Shown in pieces: positions 556 through 48,635 of a stretch of 49,413 nt of DNA. The DNA lies in the IMG/VR virus record IMGVR_UViG_2582580504_000002; one strand, 5' to 3'. A program made the translations under genes and the position numbers. Source of the DNA: a virus. The notes under the pieces were generated by a model. That model was given only the letters and a program-made list of their open reading frames with translations. It did no database searches and was not told the DNA's origin. Position 1 is the stretch's first letter. Each line of letters starts with the position of its first letter.

Positions 556-1944
556 TTAGCCGTCCATCCGCTCGGCCAGTTCGATGTACTGCGGCAGTCG
601 GTCCCAGAGATCATCCCGCTGCTTGATGATGTGCTCGAGCCTTTCGATAGCTCGGAGATCATCGGCCGTCGCCTCGCCGTCGGTGATCATGTCGAGCAGG
701 TCCTCGCCCTCGTCGGCGACGCTCGGGGTAGTGACTAGCACGGGATTTCGGCCCAGTTCGGCGACTGTGTCAGCGGAACACCAGAGACAGGAGTCTCGAT
801 GCCGAGGCGTGTACCGGTTGCAGCCGTCACAGACGACCGGCACGATCGGCTCTTCTTCCTCCTCGAGCGAGATGTTCGCGCCGTCAGCCATGGCGATGTA
901 CTTCCGCGAGCGGTTCCCGAACTCGGCGATGTAGTGGGCGGCGACGCGGGAGCCTTTCACCCAGCCGAAGTGGTACTCGAGCGTCCGCTGCGTGACGTGG
1001 CGGCTGCTTGCCAAGACGCTCGCCCTTGAGGCGCGGTAGTGTTTCGGCGGGTGGGGCTTCGTGATCCCAGCCCGCTCCGCTGCGCGGTTGATGTTCCGGC
1101 GGAGATCTCGGTACGCGAGGTGTTCGTTGTCGTTCCGTTTCGTCCAGACGTACGTATCGCTGCTGGGCCCACCTTCGTCATGAACCGGATGCTCGTTTTC
1201 GAGCCACTGCCGCAGGTAGGGAGTACCGACGTCCATTCGGATCGTTCGGGAGCCGGTCTTCGTGTGTTCTGGAATCGAGACGAGGAAGTGGTCGCCCTGA
1301 TCGGTGAAGTCACCGAACTTCAGCTCCCAGAACTCGGACATCGGCCGGCAGCCAAGCGCCCACAGCGTGGCGACCATCGCGGTCGTGCGTGGATCGAGAC
1401 AGCCTTCTTCGATGATCTGGACGATGTCGTTCCAGAACAGCACCTCGGTCGGGTCTGGGGCGGGCTGATCCTCTTCGACGTTCCCGAGTTTTACCTTCTC
1501 GATGCGATCGGGCAGCTTGACCTGACCGGCGACGACCTCGGCGTCTGGGGCCATGAACCGCCCCCAAGAGCGGACCGAGGAGTGGTAGTTGTCGATCGTG
1601 TAGCCGTTGTCGTAGTTGTCGTCGACCCACTCGAGGATGTCGTCGACGGCGTCTTCGCCGTCTTCTGGAGAAAGCGTTTCAACGAGCACGCCGGTCTCGC
1701 GGGCAATGCGCAGGAGGTGTGCGAGGTAGCTCTCGATTCGAGTACCGCTGAGTTGCTGCTTCGAAGTACTCTCGCGGTTGTGCTGCTGGATCTCGTCGTA
1801 GTACTCGAGGAGCTTGACCTCGCTTTCGTCGTCGATTCTGTCGGTCTCGCGGATTAGGTCGAGTTTGCGTTGGATAACTTCTTTGTAGTCGCTTTCCATA
1901 CGTTCAGGTGTGATGAGTAGACCACCCTGGGAGTCGTTGGGCAC
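556..1944 (-). CDS. Tyrosine integrase, SNJ2-like haloarchaeal family, with C-terminal zinc ribbon
   Basis: LGCRPMSE (R), KTGSR (K), PKHYRASRAS (KxxR), FGW, AAHY (Y), then CDGC..CLWC ribbon. Confidence 0.9.
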   Translation of the reverse strand: MPNDSQGGLLITPERMESDYKEVIQRKLDLIRETDRIDDESEVKLLEYYDEIQQHNRESTSKQQLSGTRIESYLAHLLRIARETGVLVETLSPEDGEDAVDDILEWVDDNYDNGYTIDNYHSSVRSWGRFMAPDAEVVAGQVKLPDRIEKVKLGNVEEDQPAPDPTEVLFWNDIVQIIEEGCLDPRTTAMVATLWALGCRPMSEFWELKFGDFTDQGDHFLVSIPEHTKTGSRTIRMDVGTPYLRQWLENEHPVHDEGGPSSDTYVWTKRNDNEHLAYRDLRRNINRAAERAGITKPHPPKHYRASRASVLASSRHVTQRTLEYHFGWVKGSRVAAHYIAEFGNRSRKYIAMADGANISLEEEEEPIVPVVCDGCNRYTPRHRDSCLWCSADTVAELGRNPVLVTTPSVADEGEDLLDMITDGEATADDLRAIERLEHIIKQRDDLWDRLPQYIELAERMDG

Positions 1945-2180
1945 GATGGGAGGGTGGTCTGTTGGTCAGTTAGCGAGCGATTCTCCCAAACCATATTCAT
2001 GGTCCTGTGACGTTTAAAACCTTCACGAGTATTAAACTCTGGAAAATAGATCGATTGGTGGGACATGTAGTGCGCCTCACCAGCCGTTGGTGGGTGATCG
2101 CTTAAATAGAACTTAAACACCGGTCGAACAGCGACGAGTACCGAGGATTGGCACCTCGATCGGCCACTTCGACACCTCGA

Positions 2181-2215
2181 ACCCCACCGTTTCCGCTTGA
2201 GAATCCAGTGGTTAC
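2181..2215. promoter_or_regulatory. ORB-like elements (candidate Cdc6-binding origin boxes)
   Basis: Minus strand TCAAGCGGAAACGGTGGGGT (2181-2200) resembles the haloarchaeal ORB with G-string; TCCAGTGGTTAC on the plus strand at 2204; AT-rich tract follows. Confidence 0.4.
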
Positions 2216-2279
2216 ACCCGCGAGGTGGGTGTGGTACGAAGTGTATATACCGTATAGTGCAATACAGAAGCCGCGCCCG

Positions 2280-2828
2280 TCACTCGTTGTCAGCGATCGG
2301 CGCGTCCGTCAGCCGATCCGACTCCTCGAATCGCTCGCGGATCTCCTCTGCATCCATCTCCTGGACTGCTTCCATTCCGAGCTCGAGGAGCAACGGTCGG
2401 AACTCGCGGTTCTTCTCGAGCGTCTCGCCGAATGCCTGCCGGTATTTGACGTTGACCATGTCCTGAGTGAGGCCGAGCCCCTCCTCTTTGAACTCCTCGG
2501 TGACGTAGAACGATATGTTCTCAAGTTCCTTCAGCGGCTGCTGCCACGGATCCTCTGTCCCGGATGTCACTTGTGTCCCAGAAGTCTTTGACATCCCTGA
2601 CCCATCTGCTGTCTGGGATGTCCCAGACACACCGTCGCCGTCTTCGGGTTCTGCGTCCGTCCCTGATGTCCTTGATGTCCCTGACCTACTGGCTGTCCCG
2701 GACGTATCTGATGTCCCTGATGTCCCTGATGCCCGTGACCTCCCGGATCGGCTACGGTTACGCCCTTTCTTTTTCTCGAGGACGCGCTGCGCGGCATCTT
2801 CGTCGACGTCGTCAGCACCGTTGGTCAT
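2280..2828 (-). CDS. ParA partner: GTS-repeat N-terminus, putative ribbon-helix-helix centromere-binding C-terminus
   Basis: Coupled to parA (4-bp overlap); C-terminal ENISFYV beta-strand followed by helices. Confidence 0.6.
   Translation of the reverse strand: MTNGADDVDEDAAQRVLEKKKGRNRSRSGRSRASGTSGTSDTSGTASRSGTSRTSGTDAEPEDGDGVSGTSQTADGSGMSKTSGTQVTSGTEDPWQQPLKELENISFYVTEEFKEEGLGLTQDMVNVKYRQAFGETLEKNREFRPLLLELGMEAVQEMDAEEIRERFEESDRLTDAPIADNE
2560..2735. repeat. Degenerate 9-bp repeats (GATGTCCCT / AGGGACATC) inside the ParA-partner gene
   Basis: ccctgatgtccttgatgtccctga, ctgatgtccctgatgtccctgatg and palindrome tctggga-tg-tcccaga; related motif also at 3745-3776 and 3816-3823. Confidence 0.8.
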
Positions 2829-3799
2829 GCTTGTGCCTCCTCACCGACCGGTTGGTCGACGTCGATGTCGAAGTGATTGATCACGGTCGCGGCGACCTCG
2901 TCGAACGCCGCAACGAGATCCTCGAGATCGTCGTCACCGTACTCGTAGACCGAGACGCCCTCCTTGAACGAGTACTGCAGCGCGACACGTTCGCCGATCT
3001 CGACGACAGGTTCGTCCCGGAACACCATGTTCAACCACCGGATCATCTGCTTACTCTCATTCGTCACGATCCTCGGGATCCGGTTCGCGATCGCGGCGAC
3101 GTCGATCACCTCAAGGTCAGTCTCGGCTTCGAAGACGGCGACCTGATCGAATAGGAGTTCGATCGCCCGCTTGCTCGAGCTTTCGGCTAGCGCTGGGACG
3201 ATGATGTCCGGCGCCGCGAACAGCGCCTGATCGAAGATCTCCCCGTAGTTCGGCGGCGCGTCGACGACGATCACGTCATAGTCGTCTTCGACCGTCTGGA
3301 GGACATCGTCCAGCTGGAACTTTGCATGGTCGTGTTCGAGACTGAGCATCGCAGTCGACGCCTTGTAGGCCAGCGGCTCGAGTGCTTCCGGCTCGATCTC
3401 GAACGTCTCGTCGGCCTGAATTTCGGCCATCATCTGCGCGATCAGCAGCTCCCGCTGGATCGTGAGCAGGTCGATGTTGCTCGGGATGACGTCCATCTCC
3501 TCGTGCGCGACGATGAGTTCGGATGTGCGGTCCCGAACGCTTGGATCGAGCAGCACATCGTAGAGGGTGAGGTCGTCCGACTCGTATTCGTCCTCGAGGC
3601 CGAGGCCGATCGTCGCGACCCCCTGCGGATCCATATCGACGAAGAGGGCGTCAAGACCAGCGTCGTTGAGCCCGCCCGTGAGGTTGATCGCTGTGGTCGT
3701 TTTCCCGACACCGCCCTTCGCGTTGACGACGCAGATCCGTGGTCTCCCTGATATCAGGGACGCCCCTGATGTCCCGGGAGTCTGTGAATTCTCTGGCAT
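2825..3799 (-). CDS. parA: ParA/Soj-family partition ATPase
   Basis: Deviant Walker A NAKGGVGKTT, VDMDPQG, DVIVVDAPP; start moved to ATG 3799 (MPENSQ). Confidence 0.93.
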   Translation of the reverse strand: MPENSQTPGTSGASLISGRPRICVVNAKGGVGKTTTAINLTGGLNDAGLDALFVDMDPQGVATIGLGLEDEYESDDLTLYDVLLDPSVRDRTSELIVAHEEMDVIPSNIDLLTIQRELLIAQMMAEIQADETFEIEPEALEPLAYKASTAMLSLEHDHAKFQLDDVLQTVEDDYDVIVVDAPPNYGEIFDQALFAAPDIIVPALAESSSKRAIELLFDQVAVFEAETDLEVIDVAAIANRIPRIVTNESKQMIRWLNMVFRDEPVVEIGERVALQYSFKEGVSVYEYGDDDLEDLVAAFDEVAATVINHFDIDVDQPVGEEAQA

Positions 3800-19447: not shown

Positions 19448-19647
19448 TGTCGGATAACGGGACAGAACGGCCAGAGTGTCCGACGATCACCTGTAACAAC
19501 TGCGGGACCGAACACCACTACGACGCTCGAGGTGGCCACTGTCGGGAGTGCAACGGGTACCTCCGGGAAGCAACCCCAGAGGAACACGAGCAGTTCGGGG
19601 AGTTTCTCGAATGGAACACGCAGACGGAGGCTGATCACGATGAGTGA
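19447..19647 (+). CDS. Small zinc-finger protein
   Basis: CNNCG...HCRECNG. Confidence 0.75.
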   Translation: MSDNGTERPECPTITCNNCGTEHHYDARGGHCRECNGYLREATPEEHEQFGEFLEWNTQTEADHDE

Positions 19648-20458
19648 CGGCGCCGATCTCGAGTGCCCGACCTGCGGCGCTGACCATCTCGACAGCTGGA
19701 AGAAAATAAAGATCCACCACTATCAGAGCCACGGCGAGCGCCTCGTCGAGACGTCGACGTGCGATCACTGCGGTGAGGAGTTCGAACCGACGAATAAGGG
19801 GATCTACTGCAGTATCGAGTGTCGCGCTGCGGCCAATCGGGACCGCGTCTCGTTCGAATGCGAGTACTGCGGCGACACCTTCGAGGTCCATCAGTACCGC
19901 GCGGACGAGGCGCGGTTCTGTTCGCACGAGTGTCGCGGTGCGGCCTCTCGAAAGCAAGCAACTGTCGAGTGCGAGCAGTGTGGCGACAGCTTCGAAGTAC
20001 AGGCCAACATCAGCGATGACCGTCGGTTCTGCTCGCTCCAGTGTTCGGCTCGCTACCGGCGTAACCGCGTTCGACTCGAGTGTGAGCAGTGCGGCCGCCC
20101 TTTCCACGAACACAAGTGCTTTGACGAGGTGCGGAAGTACTGCTGTCACGCCTGCCAGTACGAGGCGGCCCGGGAGACGCCCCGCGAGTTCGAGACCGTC
20201 GACGATCTCCTACACCAGCTGTACGTCGACGAGGACTGGAACTACACGAAGACCTTCCGCCGCCAGCGGGCCGTCCTCGGCGACGAAGACGCCTTGCTCA
20301 AGAAGGAGGTTCGCGAGCACCTCATTGAGATGGGCGTCTATCGGCTGGGTCATCAGCGGAGTCTGACCGAGACCGATCCCGACGAGGTCGGCGGACCGAC
20401 GCCCGATGGAGACAGTTCGTGGCGCGAGTACTACGGGGGCGAGTCGGCCGATGACTGA
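19640..20458 (+). CDS. Tandem zinc-finger array protein (CxxC-x-F/YCSxxC repeats), no HNH domain
   Basis: One C2H2 followed by four CxxC...(Y/F)C(S/C)xxC units. Confidence 0.82.
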   Translation: MSDGADLECPTCGADHLDSWKKIKIHHYQSHGERLVETSTCDHCGEEFEPTNKGIYCSIECRAAANRDRVSFECEYCGDTFEVHQYRADEARFCSHECRGAASRKQATVECEQCGDSFEVQANISDDRRFCSLQCSARYRRNRVRLECEQCGRPFHEHKCFDEVRKYCCHACQYEAARETPREFETVDDLLHQLYVDEDWNYTKTFRRQRAVLGDEDALLKKEVREHLIEMGVYRLGHQRSLTETDPDEVGGPTPDGDSSWREYYGGESADD

Positions 20459-46683: not shown

Positions 46684-46762
46684 TCAACCTAACTGGTTGA
46701 GCTGCGACTGCGTGTTGTCCGGCGAGCTGGCGATGTAGGCCTGAGCCGTGCTGATCTGGCTC
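46684..46762 (-). pseudogene. Displaced original 3' end (25 codons + stop) of the tyrosine recombinase
   Basis: SQISTAQAYIASSPDNTQSQLNQLG*, 18/25 identical to the recombinase's present C-terminus and the same length; GC3 22/25. Confidence 0.9.
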
Positions 46763-47638
46763 TTAGAGTCGTCCCCGTAGCGTTTCGCGTTCCTCCCACG
46801 GGATATGGATATCAGCGGGCAGTTCAGATCCGACGACAATGTATGTGTATTCGGGATGGGTCTCGAGAAACATCTCAGACCGTTCGGCTTGCCCTTCCCA
46901 GACGTACCCTTTGACCTCAATTATCGTATCGTCGACTCTGAAGTCAGGCGTGTAGTAGCGATCACCGATGTCAAAGCGTTCGGGTTCGTACTCGTGGGCG
47001 TCGACCGCCTCCGACAACAGCTTATCAATTTCCGCTTCCCAGTGCGACCGTACTGTATGGCCAGTCTCATCGACCTCAATCGAGAGTTGGTGAGGTGGAT
47101 AGCTATTCTCCCGGATTTTCTGCCGGGTTTCCTCGCTTACATCATGCCCCTCCAACGTATCACTTATTTTCTGACGGATCTCATCAGTCATCTCTGTATC
47201 TGATATTTCCGTCAGATGTTCGACCCACCCCTCCTGATCTGCGTCGTTCTCCCACCAGTCTCTCCACCCTTCTTTCGCAGCCTCGATGACGTGGTCAGGC
47301 ATGGTTTTCCCTCGTTGTGCCTCTGCAATTCGCTCAACAACTTCTTGCGGTCGCTCTCGAGAGCTTGGGTGCGCATCGCCTAAGTCTGCGTTATACAAAC
47401 AATCTTTACAGAAGTCAGTTGACCGAACCTCCAGCTCATGTTCATACATTTCTGTTTCGCCACCACAATTCTCACAGATAAGAGTAGTCTTCACGAGGGA
47501 TTCGCCGTGTATCCATGAGTGGTGACGGTGCATCCCTACTTCCGTATCGAATACCTTCCCGCATGTCGGACAGGTTCGTTCTTCGGAGATGGTTTCGCCA
47601 GTCAAAGTTTGCTGTAACGGCGTATCCCTGTCGCTCAT
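46763..47638 (-). CDS. Free-standing homing-endonuclease-like protein: C2H2 and Zn ribbon, NUMOD3-like repeats, PD-(D/E)xK nuclease
   Basis: CPTC..HHSWIH; CENC..CKDC; HDVSEETRQKI and EIRQKIS; RSHWE..YEPERF..YTPDF..IIEVKG. Confidence 0.85.
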   Translation of the reverse strand: MSDRDTPLQQTLTGETISEERTCPTCGKVFDTEVGMHRHHSWIHGESLVKTTLICENCGGETEMYEHELEVRSTDFCKDCLYNADLGDAHPSSRERPQEVVERIAEAQRGKTMPDHVIEAAKEGWRDWWENDADQEGWVEHLTEISDTEMTDEIRQKISDTLEGHDVSEETRQKIRENSYPPHQLSIEVDETGHTVRSHWEAEIDKLLSEAVDAHEYEPERFDIGDRYYTPDFRVDDTIIEVKGYVWEGQAERSEMFLETHPEYTYIVVGSELPADIHIPWEERETLRGRL

Positions 47639-47798
47639 CGCTTACAGATGAATTATAGTACACCACAAAAATAGTTTGTCAGAGATCTGCTCTAACGACT
47701 GAATCAGTCCTCAGACAGGCTCAAGCCAACTGATTCAGTTGTGTCTGTGTGTTGTCTGGGGATGATGATATGTAGTTCTGTGCTGTTTGGATGGAAGC
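46763..47798 (-). mobile_element. ~1.04-kb mobile cassette (recoded recombinase tail + nuclease gene)
   Basis: Begins immediately after the TGG codon at 47801-47799, ends next to the stranded original tail; lower GC than its flanks. Confidence 0.8.
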
Positions 47799-48635
47799 CC
47801 AGCCGAACATCGCCTGCAGCGCCGGTGCTTCAAGTCCTTTCCCTGCCACGTGGCTCGCAGCGGTCGCGCGGAGCCCGTGCGGTGTCGTGTCGCCGACTTC
47901 CAGCCCTTCTGCGAGTTCGAGCGACTTGTCCAAACGTCGCCGGAGGGCAGACATCGACTTGTTCCACTGGTCGAAGACGTCGAAGAACCGTTCGACGGCG
48001 ATCTCGGCTCGAGGGGACCAATCAAACGGCACTTCGCGTTCTGCGTTCTCTGTCTTCGCGCTCCACGCCTGTGATTCGGCTTCTTCGACCGATATCTGGT
48101 TCTCGTTCCGGTACTGTTCGGCGACGTCGTCGAGCGCTTTCCGGAACGCCTCAGCGTCGTCCACCGTTGCAGCGTTCTCAGCGATGGACTCCAACTGCCG
48201 ATCGAGCGCCTCCTTAGAGAGATCACTGTCGATGTGGACGATGTGTGCGGTCTGGAGCTGCCGTCGTACATCCCCCGGAACCTGCGGAACCTCAGAGAGT
48301 TGTTCTTGGAGGACCTCAAGCCGCGCCTCGGAGAGCGAGAGTTCGCTGTACTCTGACTTCTGACGAGCCTGCTGGCTACAGTAGCCGCAGCAGTCTTCTC
48401 CGTAGCCCTTGCTGCAGGGCTCGTGGTACGGCACCTCGATTCGTCTCTTCCGCCAGTTCACCCACGATTCTTGGCTATGGAGAATCTCACCGGCCCGCAG
48501 TCCGAGCCGGCCACCGACGAAGGCGACGTACTCGGCCTCGAGGCGCTGCAGTCGGTCGTCGATGCTCTTCGCACCGGCGACGAAGTGCTCAAACTCGTAC
48601 GCGTCGAGCGCGAGCTCCTTCGAGTGGGTTACCAC
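47721..48635 (-). CDS. Second tyrosine recombinase (XerC-like haloarchaeal family with a CCGYC insertion), possibly a resolvase
   Basis: RLGLRAGEI (R), AKT (K), PHGLRATAA (HxxR), FGW, AQNY (Y); GGAGGG SD before GTG 48635. Confidence 0.92.
   Translation of the reverse strand: MVTHSKELALDAYEFEHFVAGAKSIDDRLQRLEAEYVAFVGGRLGLRAGEILHSQESWVNWRKRRIEVPYHEPCSKGYGEDCCGYCSQQARQKSEYSELSLSEARLEVLQEQLSEVPQVPGDVRRQLQTAHIVHIDSDLSKEALDRQLESIAENAATVDDAEAFRKALDDVAEQYRNENQISVEEAESQAWSAKTENAEREVPFDWSPRAEIAVERFFDVFDQWNKSMSALRRRLDKSLELAEGLEVGDTTPHGLRATAASHVAGKGLEAPALQAMFGWASIQTAQNYISSSPDNTQTQLNQLA

Follow-up and report, generated by a model that had tools for sequence, protein, structure and literature searches.

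Why should a gene for a tyrosine recombinase be followed by a second copy of its last 25 codons, with a nuclease gene lodged between the two? This arrangement occurs in a 49,413-nucleotide stretch of viral DNA (IMG/VR record IMGVR_UViG_2582580504_000002), referred to here as the window. The answer that we favor, and to which we assign a probability of about 0.8, is that the intervening DNA is a cassette built around a free-standing PD-(D/E)xK homing endonuclease, lacking both intron and intein, that would work like the mORF elements of fungal mitochondria. An initial reading of the letters, hereafter the first-pass annotation, had proposed a homing element, and this proposal is supported both by the existence of an empty allele and by recurrence of the arrangement at diverged recombinases. 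The parts of the locus are as follows.

47799..48635, minus strand: codons 1-279 of the tyrosine recombinase gene (the host part), the last of them being the Trp279 codon TGG (47801-47799)
47721..47798, minus strand: replacement tail used by the recombinase, 25 codons plus stop, apparently foreign and low in GC at third codon positions (GC3), with the catalytic Tyr288 codon at 47774-47772
47639..47720, minus strand: AT-rich spacer of 82 base pairs (bp), with a hairpin (47696-47678), a T-run and TATA-like runs
46763..47638, minus strand: gene for a 291-residue nuclease with zinc-binding motifs, NUMOD3-like repeats and a C-terminal PD-(D/E)xK domain
46684..46761, minus strand: stranded native tail, 25 codons plus stop, without a start codon; a single G at 46762 separates it from the nuclease TAA
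46762..47798, minus strand: the whole putative mobile cassette (replacement tail, spacer and nuclease), 1,037 bp and 50.5% GC, directly after the Trp279 codon
46197-46604, minus strand: small lipoprotein gene directly 3′ of the stranded tail, kept in the empty allele and marking the right flank

The interrupted gene encodes a member of the Phage_integrase family (Pfam, E 1e-11), whose relatives include Int1 of PhiCh1, PhiH and ChaoS9 (38-40% identity over two pieces), the enzyme that inverts tail-fibre genes in these viruses (PMC6471424). Five catalytic residues (R47, K194, H253, R256 and W279) reside in the host part and the sixth, Y288, is supplied by the replacement tail; all are invariant in 33 homologues. 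At the level of sequence, the chimeric recombinase possesses a complete catalytic set thanks to the replacement tail. The cassette itself is evident as a dip in base composition, at 50.5% GC versus 60-69% on the recombinase side. Its spacer likely serves as the terminator and promoter region for the nuclease gene; promoter and terminator scans of the spacer gave matches at chance level only.

Recomputation reproduced every tail coordinate and count in the first-pass annotation. The in-use and stranded tails share 18 of 25 residues, 11 of which are specified by different codons, and are identical at 49 of 78 nucleotides. When a profile was built from 118 other recombinase tails, both tails scored 40-48 bits whereas the best background match in 300 kilobases (kb) scored less than 10 bits, and therefore the pair is not a chance resemblance. 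The two copies differ in composition. GC3 is 12/25 in the in-use tail and 22/25 in the stranded tail, compared with 209/279 in the recombinase body and 161/291 in the nuclease, such that the in-use tail is distinguishable from the body (Fisher P=0.008) but not from the nuclease (P=0.53).

An uninterrupted version of the locus is present on IMG/VR contig L001, where the gene for a recombinase 88% identical to that of the window leads straight into the downstream spacer and lipoprotein gene that the window also carries. Deletion of the cassette in silico renders the window collinear with L001 over 2.2 kb, with ~70-93% identity per 100 nucleotides, and the recombinase host part matches the empty allele at 80-93% nucleotide identity along its length. 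The predicted empty allele therefore exists and has collinear flanks. Its junction, in which TGG is joined to the native tail, is as the first-pass annotation foresaw; the codons expected next (AGC CAG ATC) proved instead to be the synonymous TCT CAA ATC. Searches for the exact pattern of the in-use tail in viral contigs, and for a degenerate empty-site pattern in the window (a search of little power), returned no match.

Comparison with L001 also reveals which tail is original. The stranded tail agrees with that of L001 at 25 of 25 residues and 65 of 78 nucleotides, which is the background level for the locus, whereas the in-use tail agrees at only 18 of 25 residues and 52 of 78 nucleotides, even though the recombinase just upstream matches at 66 of 78. 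The stranded copy is consequently the native end. All 13 nucleotide differences between the stranded and L001 tails are silent, an outcome matched by none of 200,000 random sets of 12 changes. Because only silent differences have accumulated, selection must have acted on the stranded tail until recently, and the insertion in the window is therefore young. Nine of the 13 differences fall within the first 18 nucleotides (P=0.0001), a hint that this segment may have a separate history as a crossover or escape zone. The in-use tail most closely resembles the P0056 recombinase lineage (19 of 25 residues), and on these comparisons the description that suits it best is a foreign allele, not a rewritten version of the native end.

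Is the window a singular case? We collected 53 homologues of the nuclease. The close group, whose members share 43-57% identity, is represented at the DNA level by 12 distinct nucleases, window included. A start-less recombinase tail lies directly 3′ of the nuclease gene in 10 of these 12 (window, L003, L005, L006/L007, L008, L010, L024, L025, L026 and L046), although the contig carrying the L006/L007 tail ends after the Tyr codon. These stranded tails score 30-48 bits on the 118-tail profile. Among 608 open reading frame (ORF) stops in the window and all loci, scores of at least 15 bits were obtained only after nine nuclease stops and one ORF that overlaps a genuine tail. The Tyr codon follows the nuclease stop by 25, 21, 34, 28, 26, 23, 37, 11, 33 and 25 nucleotides at the 10 loci, which puts the junction at the 3′ end of the Trp codon or close to it. 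The recombinases from which the stranded tails derive are of different subfamilies, as evident from only 5-14 of 18 identical residues between subfamilies, and nearly all of the tails are intact reading frames; L005 alone carries a likely one-nucleotide loss at its start. Recombinase loci that lack the nuclease, ~26 in number, each have a single tail. With 10 occupied loci and ~26 empty ones, at one fixed position of a conserved gene, the pattern is of a homing type.

These data bear on the simplest alternative, that a one-off recombination event left a duplicated tail and that the nuclease is a junction resolvase or has some other viral function, being adjacent by chance. Haloviral genomes are indeed mosaic, and the nuclease domain resembles T7 endonuclease I and a PHROG Holliday-junction resolvase family. 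Yet passive mosaicism would have to account for 10 loci in different subfamilies with the same junction position, when no unrelated case occurs among the 608 stops, for the absence of duplication from the ~26 nuclease-free loci, and for a low GC3 and sporadic distribution that are typical of selfish genes. We regard this explanation as largely refuted and barely credible. The tail duplication is real and recurrent, and it is almost certainly driven by the nuclease.

A search for low-GC3 scars after the Trp codon found no trend in 18 nuclease-free recombinases, and this test does not locate the cut site. Three nuclease-free recombinases (L031, L034 and L041) have a tail GC3 of 12-15/24 versus 0.73-0.83 upstream, and may carry scars of lost elements.

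In-frame replacement tails are observed at three loci, namely the window, L006 and L025. At the latter two, the recombinase enters from the contig edge, passes the Gly-Trp motif and ends in a complete low-GC3 tail, followed by cargo (1.8 kb and 1.0 kb, respectively, encoding helix-turn-helix (HTH) regulators and other small proteins), the nuclease and the stranded tail. The tails of L025 share 21 of 24 residues, of which 20 are specified by different codons (GC3 7 versus 19), and this recoding exceeds the 13.3 differences expected from synonymous saturation (P=0.0005). Recoding at L006 (5 of 8) is at the saturation level. Selection for recoding is consequently a proposal supported by one locus, with the others compatible. 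Since the tails track the local recombinase subfamily, sequence comparison identifies each as a pick-up from a relative of that subfamily, and not as descended from one ancestor.

Repair of the host gene is not the only outcome. At L008 the recombinase is cut off just before its Met-x-Gly-Trp codons, after which come genes for HNH and HTH proteins, then the nuclease and the tail, and at L005 the recombinase is reduced to a 52-residue stub. We take these two loci to be eroded or unrepaired states. The initial claim that the element repairs its target with a recoded C-terminus therefore holds for the window, L006 and L025 as far as repair is concerned, fails for L005 and L008, and with respect to recoding beyond saturation applies to L025 alone.

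Cargo of 1-1.8 kb, visible in relatives only, is an addition to the first-pass picture. Its turnover appears to be rapid because L006 and L007 share the same nuclease and right junction but differ in the DNA directly upstream. Other nuclease-like genes are among the cargo: a PD-(D/E)xK-like 228-residue protein (L006:909-1595, minus strand), a 122-residue protein that is GIY-YIG-like by motif (L025:230-598, minus strand) and the HNH nuclease gene of L008 (1438-2232).

Variable cargo at L006, L025 and L008, and a target that is itself a recombinase gene, invite the idea that a tyrosine recombinase inserts a minimal element, complete with replacement end, at an attachment (att) site within the 3′ end of the recombinase gene, with the nuclease as cargo. 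There are precedents for such behavior: the lambdoid phage 21 and e14 integrate in icd with a replacement gene end, and SSV1-type integrases split themselves. Moreover, the two tails of L006 begin with a common stretch of 11 identical nucleotides. However, the corresponding common core is 1 nucleotide in the window and 2 in L025, junctions differ by ~25 nucleotides between loci, and no tRNA or att repeat was found. The constant component is instead the nuclease, which always abuts the right junction and whose relatives are found at nrdJ, polB and thyX in places without a recombinase. Site-specific integration is, in our judgment, very unlikely.

Splicing was considered and rejected as well. 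There is no Rfam match, the boundary bases are unlike those of a group I intron, and precise splicing is excluded because the junctions vary; it is also unnecessary, as the nuclease ORF is free-standing, with its own start and stop codons and no intron or intein.

The homing interpretation can be laid out as a series of steps. The target would be conserved DNA in the tyrosine recombinase genes of haloarchaeal viruses and plasmids, namely the stretch that encodes the Gly-Trp...Thr-Ala-x-x-Tyr catalytic segment. When two related viruses or plasmids share a cell, the nuclease would cut the empty allele near the Trp codon, and repair from the donor would then employ the recombinase body as the left homology arm and the stranded tail, or a micro-homology at its start, as the right arm. 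The replacement tail, any cargo and the nuclease would thereby be copied into the break. Divergent codons in the replacement tail would serve the element in three ways: by removing the target from the donor, thus making it immune; by keeping the break from healing inside the in-use tail, an outcome that would cost the element its nuclease; and by suppressing recombination between the two tail copies, through which the element would be excised. If the replacement tail were subsequently lost, the recombinase would be left broken, as may have occurred at L005 and L008. When the element reaches a recombinase subfamily for the first time, entry probably depends on a micro-homology join, which would explain the 25-nucleotide spread of junctions.

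A related proposal departs from this scheme in a single respect, the resolution of the right end. Here, the nuclease is a free-standing homing endonuclease like the T4 seg enzymes, protected by an immune allele, and the tail duplication is a by-product of illegitimate joining without downstream homology, after which the stranded tail has no role. The variable right junctions, the tracking of local relatives by the replacement tail, and an nrdJ clade that has a recoded end without a stranded copy all agree with this view. It predicts donor DNA of variable length after the nuclease stop, yet a tail is found within ~13 nucleotides of the stop at 10 of 10 loci, and nearly all stranded frames are intact, as if refreshed by use as homology arms. 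We consider this an improbable account of the system as a whole, but joining of this kind probably contributes to first entry into new subfamilies.

Several observations weigh against homing as proposed. Right junctions that differ by ~25 nucleotides are not expected from plain homologous homing, and no occupied and empty pair from a single population was found. Recoding in the window (11 of 18 versus 10.0 expected) reflects synonymous saturation and does not exceed it (P=0.39), and the pooled recoding value (P=0.009) derives its strength from L025. Tail duplication had been expected beside homologous nucleases; it is present at 10 of 12 loci, three with an in-frame replacement tail, but L004 and L009 carry the nuclease without a stranded tail. 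Neither L005 nor L008 has a working replacement tail, so repair is not universal, and in five contigs too little sequence remains on the left to judge this feature. Finally, the closest solved relative of the catalytic domain by sequence is T7 endonuclease I, a structure-specific junction resolvase, and the fold matches (Z 7-8) are middling.

A far more elaborate scenario can be drawn, in which the cassette is a transposase-free, cargo-carrying element of haloarchaeal viruses whose broad-specificity PD-(D/E)xK nuclease recognises catalytic-segment DNA in widely diverged tyrosine recombinases and jumps between their subfamilies, whose tail is under positive selection for maximal recoding, and whose cargo is 1-2 kb of regulator and nuclease genes; the element would also act as a weapon against viruses in the same cell, by disabling the recombinase with which they control lysogeny or switch tail fibres. 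We offer this extension tentatively and consider it doubtful.

What kind of enzyme is encoded? Its C-terminal 110 residues match PHROG 29037 endonucleases (E 4e-28) as well as the PHROG resolvase family noted above, and align with T7 endonuclease I (E 4e-5) through all three catalytic motifs. The active site is intact: E201, D232 and E241 are invariant across homologues and K243 is conserved in at least 90%, giving the motif PD...ExK rather than the EDxHD of the I-Bth0305I family. A structure model (predicted template modelling score, pTM, 0.42) is confident in the C-terminal domain only. The modelled domain matches Bax1 (Z 7.9), I-Bth0305I and TnsA (both Z 7.3), consistent with a PD-(D/E)xK fold, although these middling scores name no particular family; a Foldseek search of the model gave no match at E≤0.001. 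The N-terminal 180 residues carry zinc-binding motifs and NUMOD3-like repeats with weak Pfam matches. Thus, of the initial label of zinc finger, NUMOD3 and PD-(D/E)xK, the last stands, and the others (C2H2 at E 0.039, NUMOD3 at E 0.023) lie under the Pfam cut-offs, hence 'NUMOD3-like'. Viral homing endonucleases are usually composed of a modular binding arm and a small catalytic domain.

Close homologues were drawn from metagenome and Logan contigs. Scans of IMG/VR with the nuclease revealed no close homologue, and a search of 401 Halobacteria genomes recovered sister-clade members only, none located at a recombinase, which is not proof of absence. In the nuclease tree, the recombinase-associated members are unresolved at the base and their monophyly is unsupported. 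A copy 97% identical to the window nuclease is present in another sample (P0313, a Logan contig of 1,559 bp), and the same catalytic domain forms the end of 520-580-residue repeat proteins whose genes lie in haloarchaeal chromosomes, within regions of low GC (L053, L054 and L057).

The sister clades occupy other genes. Distant members (30-35% identity) are located directly behind chromosomal nrdJ in Halobacteria (L011, L019 and L048-L051), and in nanohaloarchaea another sister clade sits in convergent orientation at the nrdJ 3′ end (L018, L021 and L022); L012, L013 and L023 are listed with this clade. In six co-directional nuclease-adjacent nrdJ genes, GC3 of the last 14 codons is 6-9 versus 10-14 in 26 nuclease-free controls (from L107-L136), without overlap (P=0.00015, a value that overstates independence because the six genes are related). 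Four of the six share a Glu-to-Asn change. No stranded nrdJ copy was seen, and the AT-rich last 12-14 codons are probably a replacement end that lacks a stranded counterpart.

At a haloarchaeal chromosomal locus (L052, G195:C6:87411-91100), a sister nuclease resides within the family B DNA polymerase gene polB, which is split into two ORFs.

2360-3688, minus strand: polB upstream part
1489-2358, minus strand: nuclease
864-1496, minus strand: polB downstream part

The upstream part ends in six foreign residues and has a lowered GC3 over its last ~160 codons, and the downstream part has acquired a new short leader that overlaps the nuclease stop. This looks like a gene in pieces, similar to the nrdA gene of phage Aeh1. 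In the virus HVTV-1, and also in HCTV-5, a 35% identical nuclease lies behind thyX (HVTV-1 genes 38 and 37; L027:2042-3711), where GC3 of the last 20 thyX codons is 8/20, down from 14-20. The family therefore behaves as homing endonucleases do at classic targets (nrdJ, polB and thyX), and at two or more of its target genes it seems to introduce an altered end.

The carrier of the cassette is available in culture. The nuclease is a 100% match to CP031301.1, plasmid unnamed4 of Natrinema thermotolerans A29 (49,411 bp, circular). Other genes of the window specify a terminase, portal, head protease and ParA, along with a second site-specific integrase of larger size, and this complement marks the window as a temperate tailed virus maintained as a plasmid (a phage-plasmid). 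In GenBank, both recombinase and nuclease are annotated as hypothetical proteins, and the misplaced nuclease start removes the first third of the protein. Elsewhere in the window (19532-20458, plus strand) is a second endonuclease gene of the zinc-finger/HNH type, whose first zinc finger is 45% identical over 42 residues to that of the 291-residue nuclease; the two share a binding module and differ in catalytic domain.

Our findings describe a previously undescribed family of probable haloarchaeal homing endonucleases. Its activity is directly testable because the target is readable to ~25 bp, an empty allele exists and a host strain has been cultured; HVTV-1 and HCTV-5, too, are in culture and open to homing tests. 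The 'bring your own gene end' solution, known from fungal mitochondria, would now be found in archaeal viruses as well, and with a PD-(D/E)xK nuclease. Here a selfish gene parasitises recombinases that belong to other mobile elements, and elements of this type are able to carry cargo along. Judging from the nrdJ sister clade, a recoded end may be an immunity device common to the whole family, one that also rewrites an essential chromosomal gene. In practical terms, a salt-adapted nuclease with a long site could serve haloarchaeal genetics, chimeric C-termini will mislead recombinase phylogenies, and annotation misses stranded tails.

A literature search, for which most subscription papers were outside coverage, found no description of such an element for archaeal viruses or tyrosine recombinases, and a survey of phage nuclease genes (PMC10448857) yielded no passage on tail duplication for the terms used. 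Comparable systems are nevertheless known. In free-standing 'intronless homing' by phage endonucleases such as T4 SegA-G, MobE and F-CphI (PMC2988022, PMC6083498), there is likewise no intron or intein, the distribution among related viruses is sporadic, the target is in a conserved neighboring gene, and the carrier is presumed to possess a resistant allele. The T4 enzymes, however, are intergenic and cleave at a distance of hundreds to thousands of bp (PMC2988022), whereas the cassette is intragenic at its presumed cut site and has duplicated the gene end. Aeh1 mobE in nrdA (PMC3045599) is also a free-standing nuclease within an active-site-coding region, with host function kept and no splicing involved, but both nrdA pieces are expressed there and the distal piece is replaced here.

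With regard to the enzyme, I-Ssp6803I is a PD-(D/E)xK homing endonuclease with a restriction-like fold. The catalytic fold of the window nuclease resembles that of I-Bth0305I (PDB 3r3p; Z 7.3, root-mean-square deviation 2.9, 83 residues aligned), which also has N-terminal DNA-binding repeats. Both of these enzymes are intron-encoded, unlike ours, which carries the PD...ExK motif of T7 endonuclease I in place of EDxHD.

The closest parallel is provided by fungal mitochondrial mORFs, which create gene hybrids of atp6 in Allomyces macrogynus and of atp6, atp9, cox2 and nad3 in Glomus (PMC3630166). Both systems comprise an in-frame foreign C-terminus, a free-standing endonuclease and a stranded native C-terminus matching that of a relative with the empty allele. 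Even the numbers are similar: the fungal stranded end is 100% identical in amino acids and 91% in nucleotides to its relative, with 64% nucleotide identity between copies, and the corresponding values here are 100%, 83% and 63%. For a fungal mORF the nuclease has been shown to cleave and to drive mobility (PMC3630166), whereas cleavage by the haloarchaeal enzyme is predicted from sequence. The fungal nucleases are of the LAGLIDADG or GIY-YIG type and occupy organelle housekeeping genes; the one described here joins a PD-(D/E)xK domain to a zinc-finger/NUMOD3-like arm, occupies the catalytic segment of an archaeal viral recombinase and, at related loci, is accompanied by multi-gene cargo. The cassette therefore works like a mORF without being a member of that group, given its different nuclease family and its host, a Natrinema phage-plasmid. 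Its architecture is less unprecedented for being known from fungal mitochondria; the enzyme family, the target and the host are new.

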